DNA of 64,000 nucleotides from an uncultured Planctomycetaceae bacterium (GTDB taxonomy: Bacteria; Planctomycetota; Planctomycetia; Isosphaerales; Isosphaeraceae): positions 2,464,001-2,528,000 of the forward strand of contig CAWIAD010000001.1 of NCBI GenBank assembly GCA_963833985.1, read 5' to 3'. The notes below the pieces were generated by a model, which was not told the DNA's origin, ran no database searches, and was given only the letters and a program-made list of their open reading frames with translations. The position numbers and the translations under genes were made by a program. Of the stretch, positions 2,953 through 36,585 are shown piece by piece; within the stretch, counting starts at the first letter, position 1; each line of letters begins with the position of its first letter.

Positions 2953-3339
2953 ATGTCGGATGCCGCGTCGAAAGGGAGGCCTAACTCGTCTGCCGAACTC
3001 ACGCTGAACGAGCTTCAAGCGGTCGACCCTGAAATCTTGAAGGAGCTGCAGGAGAAGTATGGACTTGAGATCCAGGTCCGGTCAAACAGCGAAGCCATCA
3101 ACCAACTCTTGCAGGGAGTTGGGCGCACGGCCGCCCTCAGCCCCCAGGAGTTCACCCGCGGCTTTGATCGGACCAACCCCGGGTACGACAAATTCTATGA
3201 CCGCGACGGACCTGGTGGTGGTGGTTCCCGAGAGCAAGTGACTAAGCCAATCGAGAACCTGCTTGCCGTCTCACTGCAGGAGGCGATTAAGTCGTTGTCG
3301 GCAGAACAACTGGCCACAATCAAGAAGCTACACGGCTAA
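2953..3339 (+). CDS. Putative RiPP precursor (128 aa; leader, internal aromatic-X-Arg/Lys core, follower)
   Basis: AGGAG RBS at 2941. Core FTRGFDR-TNPG-YDKFYDR (3151-3204) followed by GPGGGGS. Lies directly upstream of a radical SAM gene. Confidence 0.7.
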   Translation: MSDAASKGRPNSSAELTLNELQAVDPEILKELQEKYGLEIQVRSNSEAINQLLQGVGRTAALSPQEFTRGFDRTNPGYDKFYDRDGPGGGGSREQVTKPIENLLAVSLQEAIKSLSAEQLATIKKLHG

Positions 3340-3562
3340 CAGCTCGGTCCGTCCACAATCGGGACGCCCTCTCAAGCGCCCTACGACCGTGAAATGTTAC
3401 CCGTTCCATAGACTCGTTTCGGCTGAATGCCAGCTCTCGAATTGGGTAGAGTCAGGCGTTCCAGGGGCGCTATAGCCTACTTGCGACAGCGGTGAGGCAA
3501 TCCCTGCGCCGTTACGTCAAAGCGTGTTGTTCCCGCAATCATGAGATAGGGATGGCCCCCTA

Positions 3563-4777
3563 ATGGTTTCGCTTGCTCCACAGTTGCTCCACCTCAGTAC
3601 AGAGGCTGCAGCTTATGTACGGCCGGCCAACTACCTCCTGGTTAAGCTGGCGGCGAGGTGTAACCTCAAGTGTTCTTACTGCTACTGGTTCCGCGACCCG
3701 AGCGTCTATGGGCGACCCAAGGTCATGACTGAGGAGGTCGAGGCGGCGCTCTTGGAAAAGCTACAGCGACACCTCGTTAACTATGGCCTAGACCGATTCT
3801 ATTTGCTGTTTCACGGGGGTGAGCCGACTCTTTTCGGTCGAGATCGCTTCGAGCAGCTCACCGGCCGTTTGCGGGCACTGGAGGCACGTCTTGGGGTGCA
3901 GTTACGTCTGGCGATGACGACTAACGGCTTGCTGCTCGACGACGATTGGATAGACGTCCTGAAACGCCACCAAGTCTCGGTGACACTGAGCTTCGATGGT
4001 CCGCCGCAAGTTAACGACACGCGGCGGATCGACTTCGTCGGTCGGGGCTCGCTCCAACAGAGCGTGGCCGCCCTTCAGCGTCTTCGTGCTGCGGACCTCG
4101 AGCCGGGTGTACTAGCCGTCTGCGATCCGACCCAGGAACCCAGGCTCGTTACCGATTACTTCGTCCAGGAGTTGCACATCCAGGAGTTCGACATCTTGGT
4201 TCCCGATGCTACGCATGAAGACCATACCGTCTCGATCGCCGATTACTATAAGCGGCTCTTCGACATCTGGTTGGACGAACTGGCCCCGCGCGGGGTGCGC
4301 ATCCGCTATCTCGATAGCCTCATCGCAGGTCTGGCCGGCTACGAGAGTCACTCGGAGTCAATCGGCTACGGTCCCAACCTGCACTTTACGATGCTCACCG
4401 ACGGCAGCCTCGAGGCGCTCGACACGGTGCGAATTGCCGGACCGGGGATTACAAACAGTTGTCTAAACATCCTCACCGATGAGATCCAGGACTTGGTCCG
4501 TGACCCGTTCTGGCGGGAGCTGCTCGAGGCCTCAGTCCATCTGCACAGGCAATGCGAGCAGTGTGTGTACCGCTCTGCTTGCGGTGGAGGGCACATCGCG
4601 TCGCGCTGGTCGAGGGCGAATCGCTTTGACAACCCGAGCGTTTACTGCCGGGATCTCATCGAGATCCTCCGCCACATTTGGCAGAGGATGGCACCAGACC
4701 TTTACTTGGTCGGCATTCCTCCGGACGCGGCGTGCAACTCGGGGTCACCGCAGAATCCTGCCAAGAGCATACACTAA
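3563..4777 (+). CDS. Radical SAM/SPASM peptide maturase, FxsB/YhhB-like (cyclophane-forming)
   Basis: CNLKCSYC, FHGGEP, TTNG, SFDGP, TDGSLEALD, CEQCVYRSACGGG, FDNPSVYCRDL. Confidence 0.85.
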   Translation: MVSLAPQLLHLSTEAAAYVRPANYLLVKLAARCNLKCSYCYWFRDPSVYGRPKVMTEEVEAALLEKLQRHLVNYGLDRFYLLFHGGEPTLFGRDRFEQLTGRLRALEARLGVQLRLAMTTNGLLLDDDWIDVLKRHQVSVTLSFDGPPQVNDTRRIDFVGRGSLQQSVAALQRLRAADLEPGVLAVCDPTQEPRLVTDYFVQELHIQEFDILVPDATHEDHTVSIADYYKRLFDIWLDELAPRGVRIRYLDSLIAGLAGYESHSESIGYGPNLHFTMLTDGSLEALDTVRIAGPGITNSCLNILTDEIQDLVRDPFWRELLEASVHLHRQCEQCVYRSACGGGHIASRWSRANRFDNPSVYCRDLIEILRHIWQRMAPDLYLVGIPPDAACNSGSPQNPAKSIH

Positions 4778-4829
4778 GTTCAAGTTTCGCGAATTCTGAG
4801 GCGGTTCGCGCGTGCCGAGGAGCAAGCCT

Positions 4830-5990
4830 ATGGCCAGTCCCTACGTTTTGGTTCCCCCACCTGTATCGTTCGAGCCCTTCCCTTACTTCCAAGCTGCGCC
4901 GGTGATTCAGAAATATAATTGTGACGAACTGTTTACGTGGCTGAGTGCGGAGGCTCCCTGGCGATACCACCAGGAGTGTTTCTACCAGCAGATGGAATGC
5001 GATCTTCTGACGACGGAGCTTACTGGTCTCGCATCGCGGCTGTTCGACCCCGAGGCTCTGGCCGAACTCGTAGCCATCATGGAGGCGAGCTTCGGCGAGG
5101 TGCTCGACCAGCGGTTGAGTGTCGTCGCACACAAGCTACTGCCGGGCTACCAGATAAACATCCACAACGACGCGCCCGATCCGGGCATGGAGACACACCG
5201 CCTCGTTTTACAGCTAAATCCCCACGGTGTCCGGCCAGTCGGCGGAGACCTGGTGCTTTTCCGTAGCCGGTCGGAGCAGGACGTCCACGCCACGTTCGCT
5301 CCGGACTACAACACTGCGGTCGCCTTTGCCCTTTCGGACCGCTCCTACCACGCCGTGACTCCCGTCGAGACAGGGGTTCGCTATACGGTCGTCTACTCAT
5401 TCTGGACGAAGGACAGCGCGGAGGAAGCACGCCGGCGGGATGCCTCACTCGATGGCGAGGCCATCAAGACACTGGTCAGCATCCTCCAAGCCATCGGCGC
5501 GAACCGCGTTGCCCACAGCGACCGGACGCTGCTTGACCACCTACTAGGTACCTGCGAGCTTCTCCGCGCGTGGGGGTGCCGCCAGGCCGTGTGTGTGGCT
5601 GGGCTGTTCCACAGCGTGTACGGCACCGAGAGCTTAACTACTACCCTCGTCCGGCCCGAAGAGCGCGGCTTGCTCTGCGGGCTGATTGGCCCGGAAGCCG
5701 AAGAGCTGGTGCATCTGTTCGGAACTACTGCGCGGTTGACCCTCTTCGAGCGGTCAGAGGAAGGATGCGTGTTGCAGCTCCGCTCCACACGGGCTGACGA
5801 CTGGCTCACGGTTACACCCCAGCAGGCGCAGGACCTCCTCGCGATCAGCGCGGCTAACTTCGTCGAACAGGCGGCACGCGCTGAGCCCCCATTCTATCCG
5901 AACGACCCGAGTGTTACTGGCTACCAACGATTAGCAGGGCTCCTGCCCGAGCGGGCACGTGGTACTTTGGCACGCTTGGGAGCCTTGTGA
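4830..5990 (+). CDS. 2OG-Fe(II) oxygenase (YhhC-like) fused to a C-terminal HD-like (DUF6817-like) domain
   Basis: GAGGAG RBS. EPFPYF, HND...SYHAV...RYTVVYSF facial-triad and 2OG-binding motifs. C-terminal HSDRTLLDHL...AGLFHSVYGTE. Confidence 0.8.
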   Translation: MASPYVLVPPPVSFEPFPYFQAAPVIQKYNCDELFTWLSAEAPWRYHQECFYQQMECDLLTTELTGLASRLFDPEALAELVAIMEASFGEVLDQRLSVVAHKLLPGYQINIHNDAPDPGMETHRLVLQLNPHGVRPVGGDLVLFRSRSEQDVHATFAPDYNTAVAFALSDRSYHAVTPVETGVRYTVVYSFWTKDSAEEARRRDASLDGEAIKTLVSILQAIGANRVAHSDRTLLDHLLGTCELLRAWGCRQAVCVAGLFHSVYGTESLTTTLVRPEERGLLCGLIGPEAEELVHLFGTTARLTLFERSEEGCVLQLRSTRADDWLTVTPQQAQDLLAISAANFVEQAARAEPPFYPNDPSVTGYQRLAGLLPERARGTLARLGAL

Positions 5991-5997
5991 GGGTTCC

Positions 5998-7154
5998 ATG
6001 CCCTGGCCTGCGATCGAACTCCATGCATATGAGCAATGCAGCCAGATGGTGCTTGACCAACTCGCTGCGGCCGGCGCAGGTGACACCGCACACGCTGGCG
6101 CCAGCCTGCTCGTGCACCTTCGCAATACCCAGAAGATCCTGGAACGCTGGCAATGCCCACCCGGGCTCTGCCTGGCCGGTCTGTGCCACAGCGTCTATGG
6201 TGCCGTGTTCCCCCTCCGTCAAGCCGCCCGCCGGCGTGTGGCTGACTGGATCGGGGCCGAGGCTGAGCGCGTTGTCTGGTTCATCGCTACCGTGCACGCT
6301 GATGAGGTCGCGCGTCGGCTACTGGTCGTACCGACCGGTGACGCTAACATGATTTTGGCTCGTGCTGCCCTCGTGCTAGTGGCCAGCGACTTCGAGCAAC
6401 TCGGTCGCGTGCTGTTGTCCCCACGTCAGATCGAGCAACAACGACACCTCGCCATCCAGTGTCTACACTGGCTGCCCGAAGACGCCCGTGCCGACCTAGT
6501 GCGGCTCTACGCGGTTAGCCCCGACTCTACCGACACCGACTGGTCTCGCAGTACCGCCGAGGTCTATGACGCTGAAGCACGTAGGTACAATGCCCTCCGC
6601 GAGCTCACCTCCGACGACGTTCAATTGCTCCAACTGGTCGAGAAGCTGCTGCCGCCCGGGCGCGGGTGCTCGATCTGGGTTGCGGCAGCGGCGAGCCGAT
6701 CATGCGCCGCCTAACCGGCCGTTTCACCGTTGTAGGTCTGGACATCTCCAGCGAGCAACTAGCCCTAGCGCAACGCGCCCGAATAACAGCGCGGCTTGTG
6801 CGAGCCGACATGCTGCACCTGCCCTTCCCCGACTCGGCGTTCGATGGCGTGTGCTCCTACTATGCCATCGTTCATGTACCGCGCGTGAGACACGCACTGA
6901 TTCTTCGCGAGCTGCGCCGCGTGTTACGGCCAGGTGGCTGGGCACTCATTTGCCTTGGGGCCAAAGACGTCCCGGCCTGGCAAGACGTAGCCTTGCTCGG
7001 CCGCCCGATCTTGTTCAGCCATTACGACGTTAATGAGAACCTCGAGATGCTCGCGGAGCAGGGTCTGGCTATCCGTTGGTCATATATCGTGGGCGCAGAC
7101 ACTGCAGCGGCATTTCTCTTCGCTCTGGTTCAGGCTGAGGAGGACCCTGCGTGA
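5998..7154 (+). CDS. HD-like (DUF6817-like) domain fused to a class I SAM methyltransferase (frameshift near 6660)
   Basis: HAGASLLVHL...AGLCHSVYG in the first ORF. VLDLGCGSG, GLDISSEQL, LRRVLRPGG in the second. One extra G at CCCGGG^CGCGGG joins them as LPPGARVLDLGCG. Confidence 0.7.
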
Positions 7155-8164
7155 TACCCGATAGACTGGTCCTGGAACGGCGATGCTTCCCGACCCGGAT
7201 TGCAGCCGAGCGCGCTTTACGTGGGCTCTACCGTGATCGGTGGCCCGTGCTGGTCGGCGAGACCGCCCACGAGCGGCTTTATTGCATTGAAGACGCGTTA
7301 GTCGGCCGCCCAGCTCGCGATCCGAATCTCGCCTGCAACCTTCGAGAAATCCTAGGGATTAGCCCGGAAGAGGCGGCCCACTTCCGCAGTTTTCGGGCCA
7401 GACATGGCGGTTGCAGGCTCACTACATTGCAGCACACGTGGGCACTAGAGGCCCTGAGCAAATGGGCCACGAGGCGTCACCCCGGCGATCCACCGCCTCT
7501 GTTACTGCACGTGGACGCGCACGACGACCTTCAGCCGCCCAGTCTCGTTGCAACTACTGATCCATGGATCTACCAAGCACCTGTAGGTGGGGACGTACTC
7601 GACCTCCACGACCCAGCTACGGTATCTCCGTTCGTAGAGCGTGGACTCATCGGCATTGGGGGCTTCCTGGTTCCAATCCTGCACGCCTTGGTAGCCGCTC
7701 AGGTCGTGTGGTTGCACCCACTTGAGGTTCGGCCCGCAAATACTCAGGCCAGCCTGCGGTCCGCCACCGAGCCATTTCTATTTTTTGGAGGGTGCTTCCA
7801 ACGGCCGATCATTGAGGTCGAGCCATGTGACGTAGAATCGGCCCATCCTTTACGCCTGCTCGCGACGGATAACTTGTCGTCCCTAGTATCGTGGCTCACG
7901 CCAGGCCCCGTGCTCGTTGACATCGACTTCGATTACTTCTGCAACCTCTATGACGATAGCCAGGTTCGGCCCCAAGAGCCACCGTCCCACAATGAGGTAT
8001 TAGACCACATCGATCGGTTCGCCAGCGAGTTGGGTCGCATCCTGAGGAACCACCGCGTCGAGCTTGTCACACTAGCGTTGTCGCCAGAATTCTTCCCGTC
8101 TGCCTACTGGCCCAGGTGCCTTGAGAGGCTCGAGGAACTCGGCGATTGTTTACTCGAAGCGTAG
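7151..8164 (+). CDS. UPF0489-family arginase/deacetylase-fold enzyme (peptide-arginase-like)
   Basis: QHTWAL, LLHVDAHDDL, LVDIDFDYFCN, LVTLALSPEFFP. Start overlaps the upstream stop (GTGA). Confidence 0.7.
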   Translation: MIPDRLVLERRCFPTRIAAERALRGLYRDRWPVLVGETAHERLYCIEDALVGRPARDPNLACNLREILGISPEEAAHFRSFRARHGGCRLTTLQHTWALEALSKWATRRHPGDPPPLLLHVDAHDDLQPPSLVATTDPWIYQAPVGGDVLDLHDPATVSPFVERGLIGIGGFLVPILHALVAAQVVWLHPLEVRPANTQASLRSATEPFLFFGGCFQRPIIEVEPCDVESAHPLRLLATDNLSSLVSWLTPGPVLVDIDFDYFCNLYDDSQVRPQEPPSHNEVLDHIDRFASELGRILRNHRVELVTLALSPEFFPSAYWPRCLERLEELGDCLLEA

Positions 8165-8572: not shown

Positions 8573-9960
8573 TCATGAGCTATCGAGAATGGGAATGCGT
8601 TGACGTTCTTCGTGCCCGGGTCGGGCGGCTCGCCAGATCGTTTGCAGGTAACCCACGCCACAGCCGGGGCAGCGGTCCTCGACCAGAACCGCGGCTGGCG
8701 GCGCAGCGGGGGACGAGGCGAGCGAGGCCGTGTCAGCCGATGCGACAATGAGCGAAACCAGGACCACCAGTATGGAAATGCCCATGCGTGACGGCGATGC
8801 CGACTCGAACTCGACCAGAGACGGCGCTGGTCCCGCCCCAGTTGGCGACTGGTCGCTGTCCGTCGAACCACGACTGTCGCCCGATGGCGGCGACTTGGTC
8901 TCTGGGGCCGCCAGCGCGCGGCACAACGCCAAGCGCTCACCGCGATCTCGGTGGGCCAAGATTCCATATTGCCGAATCCGCACCAACCCCTTGGGAATAA
9001 TGTGCATCGCGAACCGGCGCACGAATTCCACCGCGTCCAGCGTCATCTCCTTGCGTCGGCAACCGTCGGCATAGTCCTTCCAGGTGAAGGTGACCCGATC
9101 GTTCTGGAGCTTCACCAGGCGGCGATTGCTCAAGGCGACTCGGTGCGTGTACCCAGTTAAGTACTTAAGCACCTGTTCAGGTCCGCCGAAGGGTTCCTTG
9201 GCAAAGACGATCCATTCCTTCTGGTACAACGCTCGTATCAATGCCCCCCAGGCCGCCGGGCTCTTCAGGGGCAAGGTGCTCCCCGCGAACTGGAGTTGGC
9301 CGGCTTGGTAAGCCGCGCGCAAGGCCGCCAGGTACTTGCCGCGGAAAACCGGGCTGAGAACCTTGACCGACAAGAACCAGTTGGGCCGGCACGACACCCA
9401 GCGTGGTGCCTGGTCGCCAGGGTCAGTCGCGGCGTTTCCCGAGGTTTTGGCGGGGACCGCCAACCCGCCGCCGGGCACCACACAGTGAACGTGGGGATGA
9501 TGCTCGAGCTGCTGCCCCCACGTGTGCAAGACCATCAGCACCCCGATCCGTGCTCCCAGGTGCTTGGGGTCGGCCGCCACCTCCATGAGAGTCTCCTTGG
9601 CGGCGTCGAAGAGCAGCCGATACAAGAACTGGCGGTTGCCCAAGGCCAGCGCGCTGAGCTCGTGGGGCAAGGTGAAGACGACGTGGAAGTAGGGCACGGG
9701 CAGGAGGTCGGCCTGACATTTGGCCAGCCAGGCTGCCCGCTTGCTCCCACCGCACTGGGGACAGCTTCGGTTGCCGCAGGAATGATAGTGGTACCGTACC
9801 TCGCTGCAGTGATCGCACTGGGTGACGTGACCGCCCAGGGCGGCCGTGCGGCAGAGCGCCAGGTCGTGTAGCGTCTGCCGCACATGGGGGCACTGGGGCC
9901 AACGGTTCAGGAACTCGGCTCCATACCGCCGCACGAGTTGACCGAAGGTCAGGGGCTGGT
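8573..9960 (-). CDS. IS91-family transposase (start approximate)
   Basis: Zn-binding CRTAALGG...CDHC...HSCGNRSCPQC, YFHVVFTLP, LHTWG...HPHVH (HUH), YLTGYTHR, RIRQYG. Confidence 0.9.
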
Positions 9961-10803
9961 CGATGGACCCTGCGGCGGGGGCAGACGGTCGAGCGGGCTG
10001 ACCACCTGTCGCAGTCCCGCCAAGGTGACGTGCGTGTATAGAGCCGTGGTCCCGATCCGATGATGGCCCAGCAAAGCTTGAATCGTGCGGGTGTCGACTC
10101 CCGCTTCCAGGAGATGGGTGGCATGGCAGTGGCGCAGAGTGTGCGGTGTGATCCGCGGCAGGCCCGCGTCGCGGCAGGCCCGCTTGCAGGCTTTCTGCGC
10201 CGTCGCGGCGTTCAGGGGTCGATGGCGATCCTTGCCCGGAAACATCCATTCTGTCGGCCTCGTTGCACGCCAGTAGGCACGCAGTTCTTCCAGGAGTCGA
10301 GGGGAGAGTGGCACCAGCCGTTCCTTCTGTCCCTTGCCCACCACCCGCACCACCATTCGGCTGCTGTCGATCTGTGCGGCGGTCAGGTGCAAGGCTTCGC
10401 TGATCCGTAACCCGGTGGCGTAGATGGTCCGCAGTACCATCCGGACGGTCCGGTCGCGCACGGTGTCGAGGAAGAGGGCCACCTGTTGGGGTGAGCGGAC
10501 CGCCGGCAACAGTTTGGGCCGCTTGCCGTAGGGGAGCCGTGTGACCACCGTGTCACTGGGATAGGTTACCCGATAAAAGAAGCGGAGGGCGGCCACGGCC
10601 TGATTGTAGGACGACCACGAGACCTTTCTGTGGTGGAGAAGATGCAGCAGATAGCGATGGACCTGCTCGTTGTCGAGTTGATCGGGGGATTGGTTGAAGT
10701 GGCGTGCCAGCTCGCGGAGGTGGAAGACGTAAGCCTCGATGGTCTTGGGCGAGCGGTTGCGTAGCTGAAGGTCTTCGATCAAGTGTTGCCGGAGCGGAGT
10801 CAT
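9949..10803 (-). CDS. Tyrosine recombinase/site-specific integrase associated with the IS91 transposase
   Basis: LQLRNRSPKTIEAY, YATGLRISE, GKGQKER, PHTLRHCHATHLLEAG, LLGH...TALYTH. Confidence 0.92.
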   Translation of the reverse strand: MTPLRQHLIEDLQLRNRSPKTIEAYVFHLRELARHFNQSPDQLDNEQVHRYLLHLLHHRKVSWSSYNQAVAALRFFYRVTYPSDTVVTRLPYGKRPKLLPAVRSPQQVALFLDTVRDRTVRMVLRTIYATGLRISEALHLTAAQIDSSRMVVRVVGKGQKERLVPLSPRLLEELRAYWRATRPTEWMFPGKDRHRPLNAATAQKACKRACRDAGLPRITPHTLRHCHATHLLEAGVDTRTIQALLGHHRIGTTALYTHVTLAGLRQVVSPLDRLPPPQGPSTSP

Positions 10804-11015
10804 GGTGAGGATTCCCGTGGAAAGCAAGAAAATCGCGTGGTCAGACCGCCGCGACAAACATGCCACAGGAAGGGCTCTGGCGCAAATCGTCATAACCGGA
10901 ATGATCGGCACAACCGGTATCAGGTGGGGAGAGGAGGAAAAAGCGCCCCGCGAGCGAGGAAAGGGCAAGGGTCGGTAAGGTCTACCGTAAGGTTTCGTTC
11001 AACTATAGGTTTTAC

Positions 11016-11164: not shown

Positions 11165-12097
11165 TTACTGATCGGGGGGGGGTGACTCGCGGAGGAGGAT
11201 GCCACCGGGAACGTCTTCGATCCTGGCGTCTGGATAAACGAGCCAGACCTTCCGTAGGACATCGCGGAACTCCCGTTTGAAGTCCTTGGAGTTTTTGTAT
11301 TCCTGGCCGAATTGCTCTCGCAGGTTCTCCCAACTCAGCATGACTCCGCCTGGCTGTCTGATCCGGCAGAGCCGGTGGGCCAGCCACGTGTAAACGTCGA
11401 GAGCAAGGGCCGAATGCTTGAGGGCCGAGAGTGCCCGATAATCGAGGGGCACCGCGTGCTGGGCCAGTGTCTCGTAGAAATCGGTCGAGAGTTCCAGGAC
11501 GCCGGGCCACAAAGTCTGCTGTTGCCCGTCGTGTTGAAACCAAGCCTCGAATCGCTTGATCGGCTTGGCATCGACCGTGACGACCTTTCCCTGGGAACTC
11601 ATCCCGATGGTTAGGCGGCAAGCGGCCAGAGCTTCCATCTGCTTCCGAAACGTAGTGTATCCGCCGCGTTCGCCGCCGTTGGTCTGAATGCCCAGTGTCT
11701 GCAAGAATTGCCGCATGCTGTCGCCCAGTTCGACGCGACGGTCTTGCGTGCGGATCGCTTCGGAACTGAGGTGGACCATGACGAGGCGGGGCGTAGTCCC
11801 GTAGGGCAACGGTTGCGGCTTCCATTCCTTGCCGGTCCACAGTTTACCGGCTTCGAGCAGGATGCTGAACGGGCCATTATGCCGCTCGAAGACGCGAGCC
11901 TCAGTTGCTCGTCGCGGCATTCCGACCTGGCACATCACGGTGTGCAGGAAGTCGGTTCGATCGGGTGGCTCGCTGAGGATTCGGTCGTAGGCTTCGACGA
12001 TTCGATCGGCCACGGGACGACGTGAACGCTTCGGGGCTTCCCTCGTCGTGAGCGAATCTTGGCTTTGGAATTGTGCTTCAGGTTCCTGTGTGGTCAC
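11165..12097 (-). CDS. repA: Plasmid replication initiator RepA (RepA_C/IncW-like)
   Basis: FLHTVMCQVGMP, LPYGTTPRL, LWPGVLELSTDFY...HAVPLD, ALDVYTWLAHRL, LREQFG. Confidence 0.85.
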   Translation of the reverse strand: MTTQEPEAQFQSQDSLTTREAPKRSRRPVADRIVEAYDRILSEPPDRTDFLHTVMCQVGMPRRATEARVFERHNGPFSILLEAGKLWTGKEWKPQPLPYGTTPRLVMVHLSSEAIRTQDRRVELGDSMRQFLQTLGIQTNGGERGGYTTFRKQMEALAACRLTIGMSSQGKVVTVDAKPIKRFEAWFQHDGQQQTLWPGVLELSTDFYETLAQHAVPLDYRALSALKHSALALDVYTWLAHRLCRIRQPGGVMLSWENLREQFGQEYKNSKDFKREFRDVLRKVWLVYPDARIEDVPGGILLRESPPPDQ

Positions 12098-12419
12098 TAT
12101 CGCAATTACGGGTTGTTACAAAATCGTCTTTCTGCATTTCCGTGATGGGCGCACTTGCGGTCACCACGGGTTCACTTGCTCGCTCGACTGCTGGACTCTC
12201 CGGTTTGAATCGCTTTTCAAGAAGTGCTCGAACCACGTCCGCCATCTGGTCGCCGTTCAAGGCACACTGGCTCTTGACCCGCTGGTGAAGTGACTTGGGT
12301 ATGTCGATCGTGAGCCGCTTCATCGGTTCATTTGAACGCGATCGGTCGGAGATCCAGTCGTCGGGCGAGGTTGGTCCAGACGTCGATGTTGGTTTGCGGC
12401 CGATGGTGATCTTCTTCAT
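12078..12419 (-). CDS. Ribbon-helix-helix partition protein (ParG-like)
   Basis: MKRLTIDIPKSLHQRVKSQC...MADVVRALL; translationally coupled to parA. Confidence 0.75.
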   Translation of the reverse strand: MKKITIGRKPTSTSGPTSPDDWISDRSRSNEPMKRLTIDIPKSLHQRVKSQCALNGDQMADVVRALLEKRFKPESPAVERASEPVVTASAPITEMQKDDFVTTRNCDSDHTGT

Positions 12420-13045
12420 GCGGCGAAAACCACGATTTCATCTACCAAGGCGAGCAGTTCCTTTCCTGCCGGGTGGTTTGGGGCCGTCTCGAAGACGGTC
12501 TGTCCCTGGGCGGCCGACTCCGCCAGGGCGACCCGCTGGCAGATCGCGGTATTCATCACCGGGATCGGATAATCGGCCAGAGCATCGACCACGTCACACC
12601 CGAGAGCCGTATTCACGATTTTGCGATTAATCGCAAAGGCGGATTTCAGGTCCGGTTTGAAGACCGTGGCCTCTTGCATGAGGTCGATAATCTCCTTCGC
12701 GGCCCAAACGTCGTAGGGCGAAGGTTGCACGGGCACCACCACCAGGTCGCTCGCCATGATCGCGGATCGGGCCACGTCGTAAACACGGGGCGGGCCGTCG
12801 ATGATCACGACGTCGTAACCTCGGGCTAGAGTTGGCAGCTCTTTGTGGAGAGATGCCCTGGGCAGTCCGGCGACGGGGAACAACGATTCACCCCGGCGAG
12901 CGGCTGCCCAATCGAGGGCCGAGCCTTGAGGGTCGGCGTCGACGAGCAGGACGCGCTGATGGCAACGGGCGAGTGCTTCGGCGACATGGATCGCGAGGGT
13001 CGTCTTACCCACGCCGCCTTTTTGGTTGAGAAAACTAACGATCAT
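12416..13045 (-). CDS. parA: ParA/ParF-type partition ATPase
   Basis: NQKGGVGKTT, VDADPQGS, IIDGPP, PVQPSPYD. Confidence 0.92.
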   Translation of the reverse strand: MIVSFLNQKGGVGKTTLAIHVAEALARCHQRVLLVDADPQGSALDWAAARRGESLFPVAGLPRASLHKELPTLARGYDVVIIDGPPRVYDVARSAIMASDLVVVPVQPSPYDVWAAKEIIDLMQEATVFKPDLKSAFAINRKIVNTALGCDVVDALADYPIPVMNTAICQRVALAESAAQGQTVFETAPNHPAGKELLALVDEIVVFAA

Positions 13046-13142
13046 TGATGCCTCTCTGAAATACGATTTTGCGGAATTGCGATTCACCGAGTAGCACGAT
13101 TTTTCGAGATGGTCAAACACGAAGTTGAAGGCAGGCGTCTTC

Positions 13143-13951
13143 TCCGAGTAGAGAGGGGACGCACAGCAAACCACCGAAGCTGGATTATCCCAATGTCCAT
13201 GAAGCGTCTGGGATAGACGCGCTCCGGGTTCCTGTGTTTTCCCCTCCCCCTCTGAAATTCCGTACGGCGGGTTTTCCCCAGTACGGCTTCAAACAGGAAT
13301 TCGACCGCGACCTTCGCCGCCCAGCGGTTAAGCAGAGCAACTTATACGCGGCCAAAGTCTCGCTCGTCTTCCACCTAAAATGGACCTTGCGGTCAAGACC
13401 TCCCCGCGAGGGGAAGCTAAGAAGGAAAATCCCCAAGACAATCCTGTCCAGAGGTCCTTGGCTCGCCAGCGGGTTATCCTGTCCCGCCGGGTCATCGCTT
13501 ACTATGACCTCATCAGCGCCTCTCCCTCCCACTCGGCAACTTATGAATTTGCTGTCGAGTCCTCCAACCCAGATGGGCGGGGAGGGAGAGGGTCCCCATT
13601 TTACTTGGCGTGTCGGTTCATGCGTGCCATCCCCAGAACCCCGGTGGACCGGTCGGCTGCACGTGGCTGTTGCTTCACCGACCGTAGTAGCCTTCGCCAT
13701 TTCCGCCGAGGCTCGGCATCCACAGCGCCACGGAAGTTGGTTCACCCGTGGACAGTGTAACGGGGCGGACAGGTTCGCTTTCGCTACGGCCCGCATGATT
13801 GCTAGCCCCTCACCAACAAAGGACGTTTACGATCAAGCTTTCGCTGGGCGAGTCACCCCAACCCAACGTCGATTATGACTACGCGGGCAAACAGCCTATT
13901 CCCGCGGCCGGACTCACACCGGCAAGACACACCACCTTATGGGCTGCAAAC
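13143..13951 (-). ncRNA. Group II intron lacking the RT ORF (internally deleted)
   Basis: Domain V GAAGCCGTACTGGGGAAAACCCGCCGTACGGAATTTC (13254-13290, minus). Domain VI stem GAGGGG...CCCCTC with a bulged A and a CTACTCG end. Intron-like D2/D3 stretch at ~13440-13520. 5' end GTTTGCAGCCC. Only ~810 nt long. Confidence 0.75.
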
Positions 13952-18881: not shown

Positions 18882-21557
18882 ATGATACGCATCTCTCAAC
18901 AAGACAGTGCCGCCGCCGCCAAGGGCTATTACTCGAAATCCGATTATTATTCGGAAGGCCAAGAACTGGTCGGCATGTGGGGCGGCAAGGGCGCAAATCA
19001 CTTGGGACTGTCGGGGACGGTCGACAAGGAATCGTTCGATCGCCTTTCCGATAACCTTCATCCGCTGACCGGTGAGCAATTGACGGTTCGTACTCGGGCT
19101 GAGCGTACCGTCGGATACGACTTCACATTCTCGGTCCCCAAGAGCGTCTCGCTGCTTTACGGGCGCACCGGTAACTCGCAAATCCTCGATGCCTTTCGTT
19201 CGTCAGTCGATGAGACGATGCACGAGATGGAAGGCGAGATGCAGACCCGGGTCCGAACAGGAAAGCAGGACAGTAACCGCGTTACGGGAAATATGGTCTG
19301 GGCTGAGTTCATCCACACGACCTCTCGGCCGGTGGACGGTATTCCCGACCCGCAACTTCACGCCCACGTCTTCGTGTTCAATTCGACCTGGGATCGAGAG
19401 GAGGACCGCTGGAAAGCGGGCCAGTTTCGCGAACTGAAGCGAGACGCCCCCTATTTTCAGGCGGCGTTCCGCGTGCGGCTCGCGAACAAGCTGCAAGATC
19501 TCGGATTCGGAGTCGAACGCAAACGCGACGATTTCGAGGTCCAGGGAATTCCCGCCGACATCTTGAAACGCTTCTCGCGGCGGACGGAACTCATCGAGAA
19601 GGTGGCCGAGGAAAAGGGCATTACCAGCCCGGACCGCAAGGCCGAACTCGGGGCCGAGACGAGGGAGACGAAAGACCGCGAACTGAGCTTGCCGCAACTT
19701 CGCGATGCGTGGAATGACCGTCTCACGCTGCAGGAACGCCATCTGCTCGACGGCGTCTCCAACCGTGACACGCAATATGCACGACCCGAGTTCGGCGAGG
19801 CGAGGGCCGTGGATCACGCAATTGCCCATAGCTTCGTACGGGACGCCGTTCTGCCTGAACGAAAGCTCGTAACTGAAGCTTTGAAGCGGGGCTTGGGCTC
19901 GGTGACGGTGGAAGGCGTTTCCCAGGAGATGAAGAAGAGACCGTTGATCCGGAGCGCCTTTGGCGGGCGGGACATGGCCACGACCAAGGAAATGGTGTCG
20001 CTGGAAGCCAAGGCGATCGCTTTCGCTCGCGACGGTCGTGGACGTTTCCGGCCTCTGGGCGATCCGAAGCGGGAATGTTCGCGGGAGTGGTTCAACGATG
20101 GCCAGAAGGCGGCCGTACGGCATGTGCTTGGATCACGAGACCGCGTGATGATCATCCGGGGCGTCGCTGGAACGGGGAAAACGACCCTTGAACAGGAGAT
20201 CGGCGAGGCATTGTCTGAAGCGGGCAAGCCGGTCGTCGCCATCGCCCAGTCGGTGAAGGCCAGCCGTGAGATCCTCCGCCAGGAAGCAGGCTTTGAATCG
20301 GCTGATACCGTGGCGATGTTTCTGAAGGACAAGCAGATGCAAGAGGCGGCTAGGAACGGCGTCATCCTCGTCGATGAGGCATCCCAGCTCGGCACCGTGG
20401 ACATGATGAAGGTCTTTGAAGTCGCCGAGCAAACCAACGCTCGCGTGGTCCTGGTCGGCGATCGACGCCAGCACCGATCGGTTACGGCGGGCGAGCCCTT
20501 GCGGCTCCTGGAGGAGAAGGCGGGCGTTCGCGTGGCGGAAGTCAGCGAGATCCTGCGCCAGAAGGGCGACTACAAGAAAGCCGCCAAGGCCCTCAGTGAA
20601 GGGAATACCGAAGACGCCTTCAAGGTACTCGACAAGCTTGGCTGGATCAGGGAGATGGGTGACAAGGAGCGTTACCAGGTTCTGGCCGATGCCTATCTCA
20701 CAGCGGCGTCTGAGACGAAAGCTGGCGGCGGGCACAAGTCGGCACTCGTCGTTTCTCCGACCCACGCTGAGGCGGGCAGCATCACTGCGGCCATCCGTGC
20801 CGGGCTGAAGTCTGATGGCCGCATCAGCGGCGAGCAGGTGCTCACCACCTGGGTGCCCACGCACCCGACCGATGCCCAGAAGCGGGACGCGACGCAGTAC
20901 GATCCGGGATACATGCTTCAGTTCCACCAGAATGCCAAGGGCTTCAAGAAAGGGGCACGGCTGGTGATGGGCGAAGAGACAAAGCCCCCCGTAACAATGG
21001 CAGGCTCGTTTGAAGTCTACCGTCCCTTGCCGTTGTCCGTCGGCGTCGGTGATCGAATCCGACTCACCGCTGGTGGCAAGACCAAAGACGGCGAGCACCG
21101 CTTGAGCAATGGCTCGATGTTTACCGTCCAGGGTTTCACGAAACGAGGCGACCTGATCGTGGATCACGGCTGGGTAATCGAGAGGGAATTCGGGCACCTC
21201 TCGCACGGCTACGTCGTGACCAGCCATGCGAGTCAGGGGGCGACTGTGGACAAAGTCATCATCGGCCTTTCGAGCGAGTCCTTCCCGGCAACGTATCAGC
21301 GGACCGCCTACGTTGCGCTCACGCGGGGCAAGGAGCAGGCGTTGATTTTCACTGACGACAAAGATGGTTTGCTCAAGGCGATGAGCAGGCCGGACGATCC
21401 GCTGTCAGCGACGGAGGTCGCTGAGTCGGAGAAACAGGCCACTCCGGTCAAGGCCCGCCGTCCCATGTCACAGCCGTTGCTGGGGCACGACCTTGGCAAT
21501 TATCGCGATGTCAGGCAACTGTCCCAACCGATGCAGGAAATGAGCCATGAGCGATGA
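18882..21557 (+). CDS. MobF relaxase-helicase (TrwC-like)
   Basis: YY...DYY, YDFTFSVPKSVS, HTTSRP...DPQLHAH; helicase motifs GVAGTGKT, DEASQ, GDRRQH, TSHASQGATVD. Confidence 0.95.
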   Translation: MIRISQQDSAAAAKGYYSKSDYYSEGQELVGMWGGKGANHLGLSGTVDKESFDRLSDNLHPLTGEQLTVRTRAERTVGYDFTFSVPKSVSLLYGRTGNSQILDAFRSSVDETMHEMEGEMQTRVRTGKQDSNRVTGNMVWAEFIHTTSRPVDGIPDPQLHAHVFVFNSTWDREEDRWKAGQFRELKRDAPYFQAAFRVRLANKLQDLGFGVERKRDDFEVQGIPADILKRFSRRTELIEKVAEEKGITSPDRKAELGAETRETKDRELSLPQLRDAWNDRLTLQERHLLDGVSNRDTQYARPEFGEARAVDHAIAHSFVRDAVLPERKLVTEALKRGLGSVTVEGVSQEMKKRPLIRSAFGGRDMATTKEMVSLEAKAIAFARDGRGRFRPLGDPKRECSREWFNDGQKAAVRHVLGSRDRVMIIRGVAGTGKTTLEQEIGEALSEAGKPVVAIAQSVKASREILRQEAGFESADTVAMFLKDKQMQEAARNGVILVDEASQLGTVDMMKVFEVAEQTNARVVLVGDRRQHRSVTAGEPLRLLEEKAGVRVAEVSEILRQKGDYKKAAKALSEGNTEDAFKVLDKLGWIREMGDKERYQVLADAYLTAASETKAGGGHKSALVVSPTHAEAGSITAAIRAGLKSDGRISGEQVLTTWVPTHPTDAQKRDATQYDPGYMLQFHQNAKGFKKGARLVMGEETKPPVTMAGSFEVYRPLPLSVGVGDRIRLTAGGKTKDGEHRLSNGSMFTVQGFTKRGDLIVDHGWVIEREFGHLSHGYVVTSHASQGATVDKVIIGLSSESFPATYQRTAYVALTRGKEQALIFTDDKDGLLKAMSRPDDPLSATEVAESEKQATPVKARRPMSQPLLGHDLGNYRDVRQLSQPMQEMSHER

Positions 21558-24401: not shown

Positions 24402-26144
24402 ATGTATGCGTTATCTCGGCTCATGTTGATCCTCACCGTTATTGGCTGCTGCGGCTGCCTGGTGGCTTTTGCATCGGTCGGTGGTGGGGTTGCCCTTATC
24501 GCCGTTCCCATCGCTCTCATCGCGGTCGCTGTCCGGCGTCGATCTGGAGTGTTCACCGCCCATGGTACCGCTAGATGGGCAACGCTCAAAGATTTGCAGT
24601 ACGCCGGAATGGTTGGCGCTAAGAGCGGGCCGATCATCGGCAGAATGGCGAATAACGCCAAGACTCCGCTCCTGAAAGCCCTGAATGATCTATTCAGGTT
24701 CAGGGTTTCGTCCAAGGCGGCTTGCGAGCAGTTCTTCGATGCGATCCGGTACTTCAATCGACCGCAGCGGCAGTCAGAGCTGATAAGGCTCCCGAACGCC
24801 GTGCATACGGCAGTGTTCGCACCCACGGGGGTTGGCAAGGGCGTTTCGTGCGTGATCCCGTTCCTCATGACATCTCGTGAGTCAGCCGTCGTCGTGGACC
24901 CAAAGGGTGAAAACTATCAACTAACAGCCGGGCATCGGCAGAAGGTGTTTGGCCACCAGATCGTAGCGCTCGACCCGTTCAAATTAGTTACGCAGACGCC
25001 GAATTCGTTCAACGTATTGGACTTCATCGACAAGGATTCGCCGACGGCTATCGATGAATGTCGTGACCTGGCCGAAGCTCTGGTGATTCGCACCGGCCAG
25101 GAGCGTGATCCACATTGGGTGGACTCAGCCGAGGCGTGGATCGCCGCCCTGACTGCCCTCGTTGTGCACTACGGCGAGCCGAATGACCGGTCGCTGCAAA
25201 CAGTGCGTACTCTGCTGGCGAGTCCAGAGAAGCTGGAGATGGCGATCAAGCTTATGAGTGCCTCTGAGGCATGGGACGGAATGCTGGCACGCATGGGCAA
25301 CCAGCTCACGCACTTTAAGGACAAGGAGCTGAACTCGGTGATGACCACGACGGGCCGCTTCCTTCGGTTCCTCGATACCTTGGCCGTCGCTGATAGCACA
25401 AAGACCAGCAGCTTTAATCCTGCCGATTTGCGGAAGGGAAAGATGACGGTGTACCTGATCCTTCCGCCTGAGCATATGCGGGCGCAGTCACCCTTGCTTC
25501 GGATGTGGATCGGCTCCTTACTTCGGGCTGTCGTTCGCGGCGGATTGCAGGAAGAAAACCTCGTCACCTACCTATTAGACGAGGCCGCATCCCTTGGCCA
25601 CATGGATGCCCTGGACGACGCGTTGACTGTCTACCGGGGGTATGGCGTCAGGCTCCAGTTCTTTTATCAGTCGGTTTCGCAGTTGAGGAAGTCTTTCCCT
25701 GACGGGCAAGACCAAGTGGTGCTCGGAAACGTTAGTCAAGTGTTCTTCGGAACTATGGAGCTTTCGACTGCGGAGTACGTCAGCAACCGGCTGGGTGAGC
25801 AGACCATCGTGGTGAGCAGCGGTGGGACGAGCACAGGTACGTCGCATCAGATGTCCGGCGAGGGGGATGGCAGCACAACCCACTCAAGGAATGCTTCTGA
25901 CAATTGGGCACAGCTCGGACGAAAGCTGCTGAAGACGGAAGAAGTGCTGGCTTTGGATAAGCGGATTGCCATCACCTTCACTCCGGGAGTGCCGCCGATC
26001 TGGACGACGCTGGTGCGGTACTACGAAGAATCGCTTTGCGGAGGCGGAGCCGGGTACTTGGAACGGTTCAAGGCGGCGGCTGGGGTGCTGTTCAAGTCAG
26101 CCGCCCTGCTGGCCATGGTGTGTGCGCTGATCTATTCGCTCTAG
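24402..26144 (+). CDS. Type IV coupling protein (VirD4/TraG family)
   Basis: N-terminal TMs, HGTARWA, Walker A APTGVGKG, VVDPKGE, Walker B LLDEAASLG. Confidence 0.92.
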   Translation: MYALSRLMLILTVIGCCGCLVAFASVGGGVALIAVPIALIAVAVRRRSGVFTAHGTARWATLKDLQYAGMVGAKSGPIIGRMANNAKTPLLKALNDLFRFRVSSKAACEQFFDAIRYFNRPQRQSELIRLPNAVHTAVFAPTGVGKGVSCVIPFLMTSRESAVVVDPKGENYQLTAGHRQKVFGHQIVALDPFKLVTQTPNSFNVLDFIDKDSPTAIDECRDLAEALVIRTGQERDPHWVDSAEAWIAALTALVVHYGEPNDRSLQTVRTLLASPEKLEMAIKLMSASEAWDGMLARMGNQLTHFKDKELNSVMTTTGRFLRFLDTLAVADSTKTSSFNPADLRKGKMTVYLILPPEHMRAQSPLLRMWIGSLLRAVVRGGLQEENLVTYLLDEAASLGHMDALDDALTVYRGYGVRLQFFYQSVSQLRKSFPDGQDQVVLGNVSQVFFGTMELSTAEYVSNRLGEQTIVVSSGGTSTGTSHQMSGEGDGSTTHSRNASDNWAQLGRKLLKTEEVLALDKRIAITFTPGVPPIWTTLVRYYEESLCGGGAGYLERFKAAAGVLFKSAALLAMVCALIYSL

Positions 26145-29542: not shown

Positions 29543-29833
29543 ATGACGCTTGAGGAGCGGCTTGAACATATCGAGGCCATGCTGGCGCAACTGGTCGAGC
29601 GGCAGGCGGTCAAGGATTTTTACACACCGGAGGAGTTCGCCCGTCTGGTCGGGCGGGAAGCCTTCACCTGCCGCGAGTATTGCCGCCTAGGTCGCATCCG
29701 GGCGCTGAAGAAAGCAAGCGGACGCGGCAAATATGCGTCGTGGGTCATCCCGCACGATGAATTGCTCAGGTTTCAGCGTGAGGGGCTCTTGCCGGACCGG
29801 CGTCGTCAGCCAAACACTGCCAGCACTGCCTGA
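29543..29833 (+). CDS. Excisionase-like HTH protein
   Basis: FYTPEEFARLVGR..FTCREYCRLGRI...WVIPHDEL; convergent with and overlapping the integrase. Confidence 0.75.
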   Translation: MTLEERLEHIEAMLAQLVERQAVKDFYTPEEFARLVGREAFTCREYCRLGRIRALKKASGRGKYASWVIPHDELLRFQREGLLPDRRRQPNTASTA

Positions 29834-31143: not shown

Positions 31144-31233
31144 CGTTGCGGCTCCAATATCACCGCAACGCTGTTCCCAATTTGTTCCCACTGAGGGCAA
31201 ACCGACACGTTGCGATTTGCCGTAAGTATATAG

Positions 31234-31316
31234 TACCGAAGGTGGGACTTGAACCCACACGGGTGTTACCCCACCGGATTTTGAGTCCGGCGCGTCTGCC
31301 ATTCCGCCACTTCGGC
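31234..31316 (-). tRNA. tRNA-Leu (CAA)
   Basis: GCCGAAGTGGCGGAATGGCAGACGCG-CCGGA CTCAAAA TCCGG-long variable arm-GGTTCAAGTCC...TTCGGTA; CCA not encoded. Confidence 0.97.
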
Positions 31317-31398
31317 ATGCATCAGTATCAAGCATGTTCCGAAGCCTGGCGGCTGTCAACCCCCGTATCACCGGGACGGCTGGGACCTGCGTGGGCGC

Positions 31399-33780: not shown

Positions 33781-35245
<1,465 letters not shown>

Positions 35246-35276
35246 CGCAGATGGCTCCTGAAACTTTCAGTCTGTC

Positions 35277-36461: not shown

Positions 36462-36585
36462 GTCTGTCTACCCGTGCGCTAGGGATCTCGCCGTTCCGAC
36501 ATCCTCGACGGATAGCGGTTCAAACTCGGTGCGGCGTGTCTTGCTCCGATGGCGGAGCTGGGCGAGGATCTCGAGCGATGGCGTA

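Follow-up and report, generated by a model that had tools for sequence, protein, structure and literature searches.

We analyzed a 64,000-nucleotide stretch of genomic DNA from an uncultured Planctomycetaceae bacterium (contig CAWIAD010000001.1, positions 2,464,001 to 2,528,000; hereafter the window). At positions 2953 to 8164 it contains a compact set of co-oriented genes headed by a small open reading frame (ORF) whose product carries four aromatic-X-basic triplets. This set of genes is probably a biosynthetic gene cluster for a triceptide-type RiPP (a peptide that is made by the ribosome and modified after translation), lying in a mobile region, in which the formation of rings would be combined with the rebuilding of Asp and Arg residues. 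We base this reading on gene content, conservation, synteny, natural fusions, folds and the conservation of metal ligands, from which we infer all of the chemical steps and their order. The features of the cluster are:

2953-3339, + strand: precursor gene, 128 amino acids (aa); no Pfam or NCBIfam family
3151-3207, + strand: core of the precursor (F67-D85), with the four aromatic-X-basic triplets FTR, FDR, YDK and YDR
3563-4777, + strand: radical S-adenosylmethionine (rSAM)/SPASM gene, 404 aa; candidate YhhB-like three-residue cyclophane synthase
4812-5990, + strand: 2-oxoglutarate (2OG) oxygenase-DUF6817 fusion gene, 392 aa from a GTG; YhhC and PF20680 matches
5959/5998-6714, + strand: 5' piece of a broken gene, with a second DUF6817 and the first methyltransferase helix, about 240-250 aa; PF20680
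6650-6668, + strand: frameshift site, in the G/C-rich run ccgcccgggcgcggg
6666-7154, + strand: 3' piece of the broken gene, a class I S-adenosylmethionine (SAM)-dependent methyltransferase, 162 aa; Methyltransf_11/25
7151-8164, + strand: peptide-arginase-like gene, 337 aa; weak UPF0489 (PF12640) match

Searches of each protein with profile hidden Markov models, a check suggested along with the original prediction for this DNA, returned Radical_SAM, YhhC, DUF6817 (twice), Methyltransf_11/25 and a weak UPF0489 match. The gaps between the genes are 223 nt, 34-52 nt and 7 nt, followed by a 4-nt overlap, and a GAGGAG box stands 7 nt ahead of the precursor ATG. Translation of the 2OG-DUF6817 gene probably starts at the ATG at 4830, because the database copy of the protein (P0009) has 386 aa, which corresponds to that codon. 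Downstream of the precursor gene, the 223-nt gap had an RNA-structure z-score of -0.03, and a consensus scan found only weak terminator-like sites (3, with 1.4 expected), leaving an attenuator or terminator in this gap unsupported. The same scan found no promoter-like site on the + strand.

A conserved precursor adjoins the radical SAM gene

The small ORF has exactly four [FYW]-x-[KR] triplets (F67-T-R, F71-D-R, Y78-D-K and Y82-D-R), which span 18 residues and are placed two and two about a T-N-P-G turn. At least four such triplets within 18 residues occurred in 1 of 200,000 shuffles of the peptide. The original prediction had placed this ORF at the head of a co-oriented set of genes, and the ORFs on the + strand and the shuffles show that it is real.

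No family in Pfam or NCBIfam matched the precursor, and a look-up in the ESM Atlas gave no usable match. We found seven homologues among 5.8 billion clustered proteins; pattern scans detected three loci in the genomes of 185,579 species and five loci in JGI metagenomes. The resulting alignment has 16 non-identical sequences, including that of the window and some near-duplicates. Across these sequences the 19-residue core is nearly invariant, with the consensus [FY][TD]RGFDR[TS][NS]PGY[DS][KR][FY]Y[DN]RD. RGFDR, PGY and Y-x-R-D were identical in all 16, and all three core Arg residues are invariant. All four triplets were likewise kept in every sequence, the basic residue of the third being Lys in 14 and Arg in 2. 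The leader, roughly residues 15-57, is also conserved (L..LDPE.L..LQ..(F/Y/H)G.E.QVRS and relatives). A follower of about 43 residues comes after F67-D85, and the core thus lies in the middle of the ORF. Within the closest sub-group this follower is conserved; in the other sequences it is highly variable, in length as well as in sequence.

By tblastn and Pfam, all five related loci long enough to show it have the gene order precursor, rSAM, 2OG-DUF6817, arginase-like: L007 (a Chloroflexia metagenome-assembled genome, MAG), L008 (Microbispora sp.), L009 (a Gammaproteobacteria MAG), L011 and L012. These five and the window are referred to below as the six complete clusters. It had been allowed that rSAM homologues might lack an upstream peptide; the rSAM gene was directly downstream of the precursor in 6/6 related loci with sequence there, and the assignment to a RiPP-type cluster, in which a conserved precursor travels with the rSAM gene, is upheld. 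The sixth of these loci, L010, has the precursor and then the rSAM gene until its 1.3-kb contig ends. L014 stops at the precursor. L013, a 1.6-kb metagenome contig, has instead a 376-aa ORF without a Pfam family (177-1307), the N-terminus of which is a precursor-like leader and core; this ORF is either a protein-sized substrate or an artefact of assembly or frame.

The complete clusters differ in the remaining genes. Five of the six have a second DUF6817 domain. In the window and L007 it is fused to a methyltransferase; L009, L011 and L012 carry it as the C-terminal part of their 2OG-DUF6817 protein; L008 lacks it. A methyltransferase was present in two of the six and missing from four, and its gene is frameshifted in the window. 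In the Chloroflexia MAG there are frame breaks in the rSAM and arginase-like genes (L007, 10589-11762 and 14018-15113), which are probably assembly errors of this long-read MAG. A weakly trypsin-like ORF follows the Microbispora cluster (L008, 13484-14296; PF00089 20.4 bits, cut-off 20.6) and is the only protease-like neighbour in any locus examined.

The radical SAM enzyme resembles three-residue cyclophane synthases

The rSAM protein matched PF04055 (Radical_SAM) with 61.9 bits. Its best NCBIfam models were YhhB (269.2 bits, cut-off 445), FxsB (246.8 bits, cut-off 370) and XyeB (200.7 bits, cut-off 450), the same three families to which it had been compared in the original prediction, all of them matched below their cut-offs. 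The cysteines of the CX3CX2C motif (C33/C37/C40) and those of the SPASM domain (C331/C334/C340/C362) are invariant in 40 aligned homologues, with 46-69% identity. The clade has 436 proteins at E<=1e-40 and includes entries from Sorangium, Blastococcus, Microbacterium, Streptomyces and Bacillus thuringiensis. In a plasmid collection there was no close relative of the enzyme, the best match having 36% identity. According to the accessible parts of two papers, YhhB cross-links Tyr-C3 and His-C2 to Arg-C-beta (PMC11002830), and the native motif of the related enzyme ChlB is Y-D-R (PMC11499958), a triplet that is also present in the window core.

We predicted the complex of the rSAM enzyme with precursor residues 14-92, along with 3 controls, using our own alignments. 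The score of this pair was 0.69, compared to 0.02 for the best control. Of 157 solved complexes, 116 attain that mark, as do 2 of 215 mismatched pairs; these counts are rough owing to the use of our own alignments. The runs shared at least 53% of contacts and the pLDDT of the partner was at least 57. The confident contacts are those of leader residues 36-49 with rSAM residues 376-387; in the core, residues 79-81 are predicted to contact residue 119. The predicted complex supports binding of the precursor to the rSAM enzyme, and binding alone.

A predicted Asp hydroxylase is fused to a SmaX-type DUF6817 domain

The 2OG domain of the fusion protein (about residues 20-200) had been called YhhC-like, and it matched the YhhC model NF041706 over residues 21-197 with 164.9 bits, above the cut-off of 150. 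The facial triad (H118, D120 and H180) and the 2OG-binding R190 are invariant in 18 homologues. An AlphaFold2 (AF2) model of the protein (pLDDT 89.4) matched prolyl-hydroxylase-type 2OG oxygenases; all of the fold-search matches listed fall on the 2OG domain and do not bear on the fold of DUF6817. In the accessible text of Kim et al. (JACS 2025, PMC12186529), the YhhC product is erythro-beta-hydroxy-Asp.

The second domain (about residues 224-360) matched PF20680 over residues 224-308 with 86.9 bits. The two domains of the cluster that had been described as HD-like are indeed present, and their identity is DUF6817, the family to which SmaX belongs (PMC12186529, accessible text). In the same text SmaX is a DUF6817/HD_4-like single-iron enzyme that follows the 2OG enzyme SmaO and splits hydroxy-Asp to give aminomalonate, and its named ligands are His39, His63 and Asn143, with spacings of 24 and 80. 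The corresponding residues of the first DUF6817 in the window are H243 and H267, which are invariant in the 18 homologues, and N349, which is nearly so; their spacings are 24 and 82. When the DUF6817 profile was compared to PDB sequences, the one match was a weak one to an HD-domain protein (4yf1, E 0.0019), in which the HD dyad is H-D; it reads H-S in the window. The full 2OG-DUF6817 fusion was absent from the plasmid collection, where 0 of 7 records spanned at least 80% of the query.

These comparisons change the mass shift to be expected. A gain of 16 Da per hydroxylated residue had been predicted; because a SmaX-type DUF6817 and a 2OG Asp hydroxylase together turn Asp into aminomalonate, a net change of about -14 Da per Asp would be expected instead. 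By formula, the mass would shift by -2.016 Da per cyclophane, by +15.995 Da for Asp to hydroxy-Asp and by -30.011 Da from there to aminomalonate (net -14.016 Da), by -42.022 Da for Arg to ornithine and by +14.016 Da per methyl group. The methyl ester of aminomalonate would share its elemental composition with Asp, and a methylated product could therefore pass as unmodified at MS1.

The last gene encodes a distant relative of peptide arginases

A profile of six orthologues of the arginase-like protein matched one PDB family alone, that of OspR (8brp, E 6.5e-7). In the profile alignment H95 falls on the His of EEHNE, DAHDD on DEHSD and DIDxDYF on DIDIDYF. With an AF2 model of the protein (pLDDT 95.5), OspR filled the top three places of a Foldseek search (8brp; E 6e-8 to 3e-7, probability 1.0) and was followed by guanidinopropionase, agmatinase, proclavaminate amidinohydrolase and arginases. 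D122, H124, D126, D259 and D261 are invariant in 71 arginase-like sequences, and position 95 is His in 54 of them and Asp in 15. Position 257 is His instead of Asp in 15 of the 71, the same number that have Asp at position 95; metal ligands may have been exchanged in a sub-group. At its N-terminus the protein is extended by about 90 residues.

Members of this sub-family are numerous. Counted as cluster representatives among 1.84 billion, the profile had 504 matches at E<=1e-3; with stricter thresholds there were 346 (E<=1e-10) and 111 (E<=1e-30). We scanned 14 long family members for fused domains and found DUF6817 and/or 2OG domains in 7:

P0057, P0070: arginase-like fused to DUF6817
P0060, P0061: arginase-like fused to DUF6817 and methyltransferase
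P0075, P0080: arginase-like fused to 2OG
P0175: arginase-like fused to 2OG and DUF6817
5 long members: arginase-like fused to GNAT
1 long member: arginase-like fused to a helix-turn-helix (HTH) domain
1 long member: arginase-like part without a further domain

In the plasmid collection, all five records with an arginase-like relative have a YhhB gene adjoining it. We fetched three of these regions, which lie on RefSeq plasmids of Novosphingobium and Rhizobium (L019, 4443-9391; L021, 1431-6384; L022, 1-6410); in the other two the genes are adjacent by coordinates. The genes of the fetched regions stand in the order yhhA, yhhB-HExxH, arginase-like, GNAT and glycosyltransferase (family 2), except that one has an IS21 insertion and its yhhA gene is outside the fetched stretch. 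The arginase-like gene on these plasmids is named 'hypothetical protein', yhhB is fused or adjacent to the HExxH hydroxylase, and DUF6817 is lacking. The annotated YhhA peptides on two of the plasmids end in Y-D-R, H-N/H-R and H-N-R. The trait that these YhhA cores have in common with the core in the window is the aromatic-X-Arg triplet. This gene content suggests that ornithine formation, acylation and glycosylation may take place in Yhh-type triceptides.

Conversion of Arg to ornithine is the best reading of the arginase-like enzyme, because of its guanidino-hydrolase fold, the three invariant core Arg residues and the aromatic-X-Arg triplet common to the Yhh clusters. Biphenomycin biosynthesis provides known cases of peptide arginases whose target Arg lies between cross-linked aromatic residues (PMC12707348, accessible text).

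A second DUF6817-methyltransferase gene is frameshifted

The second DUF6817 domain matched PF20680 with 71.2 bits, and the piece downstream of it matched Methyltransf_11 (74.8 bits) and Methyltransf_25 (72.5 bits). In frame 1 the reading stops after ...LVEKLLPPGRG and is followed by out-of-frame residues; frame 3 carries on with ...ARVLDLGCGSGEP, the SAM-binding loop. L007 encodes an intact 383-aa DUF6817-methyltransferase protein with both parts in the same frame, two codons apart, and the methyltransferase piece of the window is 57% identical to the C-terminal part of that fusion. Judged by this comparison, the ORFs at 5998-6714 and 6666-7154 are a single gene broken by a frameshift, and not the separate HD-like and methyltransferase genes of the original prediction.

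The frameshift may be a sequencing or assembly error. Among Logan contigs only two sequencing runs turned up, each with a small share (0.16). They provided three short pieces (33-36 bases, about 86-91% likeness) and a piece of 151 bases that covers 6719-6869 without differences. None of these pieces bridges 6650-6668, and an error and a real mutation are therefore not separable from these data. In the second DUF6817 of the window both His residues are kept, and the position of the Asn is occupied by Ser-Asp.

A proposed pathway and the points that weigh against it

In the pathway that we propose, the 128-aa precursor would be the substrate, its leader (chiefly G37-N50) docking in strand conformation on the rSAM enzyme's C-terminal strand. 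The rSAM enzyme would join the aromatic ring of each triplet to a carbon in the side chain of its third residue, giving up to four three-residue cyclophanes; by analogy with YhhB, the linked carbon would be C-beta of Arg or Lys. The YhhC-type 2OG domain would then beta-hydroxylate the mid-ring Asp, and the fused SmaX-type DUF6817 would oxidatively cleave the hydroxy-Asp between C-beta and C-gamma to leave aminomalonate. The arginase-like protein, as a binuclear-metal hydrolase, would strip the guanidino group from the ring Arg to give ornithine. A methyl group would be added, at a guess on the aminomalonate carboxylate, by the second DUF6817-methyltransferase protein, which only one sub-clade possesses; its gene is interrupted in the present genome.

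Several observations weigh against this reading. With the exception of YhhC and DUF6817, the matches to curated families are below threshold. The YhhA model NF041705 (cut-off 36 bits) gave no match at E<=0.01 to any of three family precursors (those of the window, L009 and L008); two annotated YhhA peptides scored 60.9 and 61.1 bits with the same model. The rSAM enzyme and four orthologues scored 269-287 bits (the orthologues 279-287) with the YhhB model NF041707, compared to 498.7 bits for the annotated YhhB of L019, and the enzyme is under the curated cut-off of every named cyclophane family, including FxsB (TIGR04269). Because its clade of 436 proteins far exceeds the precursor family, close relatives of the enzyme may serve other peptides. 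The score of the predicted complex may reflect likeness to structures of cyclophane synthases with peptides. A structural study of ChlB with its peptide is said to exist, as known from reference lists alone. In addition, the methyltransferase gene is broken in the window, and the second DUF6817 domain may be non-catalytic, because one of its two His residues is replaced in each of L009, L011, L012 and P0057.

Other points of this kind concern the fate of the product. There was no conserved protease or exporter across the five complete related loci, and the release of a small mature peptide is for this reason unsupported. The product could instead be a modified small protein, in which the roughly 100-130 aa are kept whole, or in which they form a domain of a larger protein, with the four-ring segment functioning in or on the cell. 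The window likewise has no protease or transporter gene of the conserved kind, the core is in the middle of the ORF, the follower is conserved in the closest sub-group, and the 376-aa ORF of L013 begins with a precursor-like N-terminus. However, unlinked proteases serve many RiPP clusters, the follower is variable beyond the closest sub-group, and the long ORF of L013 could be an artefact of a short metagenome contig. On balance, we regard a product of this type as unlikely.

It is also possible that the cluster makes the same rings with a different tailoring step, the arginase-fold enzyme hydrolyzing another amidine or amide or acting as a deacylase (for example, on a side chain modified by the 2OG/DUF6817 pair), and the role of DUF6817 may differ as well. 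The arginase-like protein was called an UPF0489/OspR-type enzyme in the original prediction; its distant relationship to OspR is apparent by profile and by fold, but its score with PF12640 (UPF0489) was 19.1 bits, below the cut-off of 27, and there was no match to the NCBIfam peptide-arginase model NF052474. The TM-score to OspR was only 0.46-0.54. The EEHxE motif, which is named for peptide arginases in the accessible text of PMC12707348, is reduced to its His (LQHTW compared to EEHNE), and OspR is without the extra N-terminal domain. The tight fusions to DUF6817, 2OG and methyltransferase domains could mean that the enzyme works on their product and not on Arg, and in the second DUF6817 Asn is replaced by Ser-Asp as the third ligand. 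In contrast, the nearest folds after OspR are all hydrolases of guanidino groups, and none of the three core Arg residues varies. The relatives in yhhA-yhhB clusters occur with HExxH hydroxylases in place of DUF6817 and have the triplet X-Arg as the common trait, and the fusions to GNAT are in keeping with acylation of the amine of a newly formed ornithine. We consider an altered tailoring step improbable compared to the conversion of Arg to ornithine proposed above.

Genomic setting

The window starts inside a BREX-3 pglZ gene (2-868, + strand; NF033449 373.5 bits, cut-off 250), which is followed by a 493-aa ORF without a Pfam or NCBIfam family (862-2343, + strand). A phage-defence island (BREX-3 pglZ) thus directly adjoins the RiPP cluster. 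On the other side are genes of mobile elements:

8573-10249, - strand: IS91-family transposase
9949-10968, - strand: integrase
11165-12097, - strand: RepA
12416-13174, - strand: ParA
18882-21557, + strand: TrwC relaxase
24402-26144, + strand: type IV coupling protein
29806-31371, - strand: second integrase

Together the genes at 8573-31371 look like an integrated conjugative element or plasmid beside the cluster. Farther along are Tad/Flp-pilus-type genes (33781-37611, - strand: T2SSE ATPase, TadZ-like ParA-family protein and RcpC/CpaB), which have no relation to the cluster.

We sampled 401 genomes from the phylum of the source genome (G000), which was included, and found a full-length 2OG-DUF6817 match in G000 alone. 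Similarly, among 401 genomes sampled from the class of Microbispora, the Microbispora genome was the sole match at E<=1e-20. The distribution and setting have the pattern of a rare cassette that has moved horizontally and is present in several phyla.

The cluster could be a decaying, non-functional passenger of the mobile element in this genome, given that one of its five genes is frameshifted, that it lies between the BREX-3 PglZ gene and the mobile-element genes listed above, and that no other sampled genome of the phylum has a full-length match to the 2OG-DUF6817 protein; this is rather improbable, because the other four genes are intact and retain all catalytic residues, the broken gene is dispensable in the family (four of the six complete clusters lack the methyltransferase, and L008 lacks the gene altogether), and the frameshift is in a G/C run and perhaps an assembly error, with two breaks of this sort in the Chloroflexia MAG.

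Comparison with known systems

The YhhA/YhhB/YhhC triceptide system, reportedly described first by Sugiyama et al. in JACS in 2022, is among the known systems closest to the cluster in the window. In both, a small precursor stands ahead of an rSAM/SPASM enzyme and a 2OG Asp hydroxylase, and both have aromatic-X-Arg triplets that include Y-D-R; the 2OG domain of the window passes the YhhC cut-off and YhhB is the best model for its rSAM enzyme. However, this rSAM enzyme reaches 269 bits against the YhhB cut-off of 445, and the precursor has no match to YhhA. YhhA-type precursors have 47-60 aa, whereas that of the window has 128 aa, with a mid-protein core and a follower, and has four F/Y triplets about the TNPG turn and no His triplets. 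Finally, the 2OG domain of the window is fused to DUF6817, and there are additional DUF6817-methyltransferase and arginase-like genes.

SmaO/SmaX (Kim et al., JACS 2025, PMC12186529) similarly pairs a 2OG Asp hydroxylase with DUF6817, the two being fused in the window, and SmaX has the His/His/Asn pattern of the first DUF6817 with nearly the same spacing (24/80 compared to 24/82). In contrast, SmaA is a Gly-rich GG-leader peptide from a graspetide-type cluster with a PCAT exporter (PMC12186529).

Kim et al. noted that YhhC-associated precursors are without GD/DG motifs, and predicted an aminomalonate cascade for triceptide clusters with YhhC-SmaX fusions (PMC12186529). Their supplement 2 devotes 17 rows to clusters of the 'Triceptide' class that have YhhC-type 2OG/SmaX proteins, mostly as single fusions. 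One row lists MBC8085712.1, with the rSAM enzyme MBC8085711.1 and a second SmaX homologue, MBC8085713.1 (PMC12186529). MBC8085712.1 is P0027 in our set and is 37% identical to the 2OG-DUF6817 protein of the window, and its neighbouring rSAM enzyme (P0239) is 54% identical to that of the window. The combination of a triceptide with YhhC-SmaX is thus already in print, as a prediction. 'Arginase', 'UPF0489' and the core motif of the window do not occur in the text of PMC12186529 or in its readable supplement text, figures aside.

The arginase-like enzyme resembles OspR (landornamide) and BipC and PbsE (biphenomycin type) in its ureohydrolase fold and in the DxHxD and DxDxD metal motifs. The biphenomycin type also has in common with the window a RiPP setting in which an Arg is between or beside cross-linked aromatic residues (F-R-F motif). 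In contrast, identity to OspR is about 18-19%, with scores below the Pfam/NCBIfam cut-offs and EEHxE down to its His. The window enzyme also differs by its N-terminal extension of some 90 residues. It belongs to a distinct sub-family (346 representatives at the E<=1e-10 threshold), in which fusions to DUF6817, 2OG, methyltransferase or GNAT domains occur elsewhere.

Enzymes of the ChlB/ChlH-type FxsB group, in which the rSAM enzyme is fused to an alpha-ketoglutarate HExxH hydroxylase, form a cyclophane on Y-D-R (PMC11499958), and the ring Asp is beta-hydroxylated after ring formation (PMC11499958, PMC12636437; accessible parts of both), as in our proposal. The hydroxylase of the window differs from theirs in being a classical 2OG double-stranded beta-helix of the YhhC type and not an HExxH enzyme, its rSAM enzyme is unfused, and it has DUF6817, methyltransferase and arginase-like partners.

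In the literature searched, most subscription papers aside, we found no product for the precursor family of the window and no cluster of a triceptide synthase with a peptide arginase; the sole pathway with an arginase and an rSAM enzyme was of the B12-rSAM biphenomycin type. The original prediction had not recognized this combination of enzymes as a characterized family. That holds for the precursor family, which is undescribed in these sources, but not for the combination as a whole, as YhhC-SmaX triceptides are listed by Kim et al. (2025) and arginase-like relatives occur in yhhA-yhhB plasmid clusters. The types of enzyme are each known already, and the cluster is not a new category; the precursor family and the set of tailoring enzymes are uncharacterized.

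Implications

A more far-reaching reading is that the cluster represents an undescribed module acting on one aromatic-Asp-Arg ring, the module being the arginase-like sub-family with its own N-terminal domain, which is elsewhere fused to DUF6817, 2OG or methyltransferase domains. Four rigid cyclophanes, each with an ornithine and an aminomalonate (a chelator of the malonate type), would then give the product a pre-organized poly-chelating segment and make it a metal-binding RiPP or a modified small protein kept whole, and not a classical secreted antibiotic. We consider this doubtful. If it were true, the methyltransferase of the sub-clade would cap or stabilize the decarboxylation-prone aminomalonate as a methyl ester.

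The compact five-gene cluster and the invariant core make an easy target for heterologous expression. If our main reading of the cluster is correct, a 19-residue segment would unite three rare post-translational chemistries: radical C-C cyclophanes and the conversions of Asp to aminomalonate, shown so far for one graspetide-type pathway, and of Arg to ornithine. The predicted 'triceptide plus SmaX' clusters would for the first time become open to experiment. The cluster would also define the substrate of a sizeable, unannotated arginase-like sub-family (504 representatives at the E<=1e-3 threshold) and account for the fusions of its members to DUF6817, 2OG, methyltransferase and GNAT domains.

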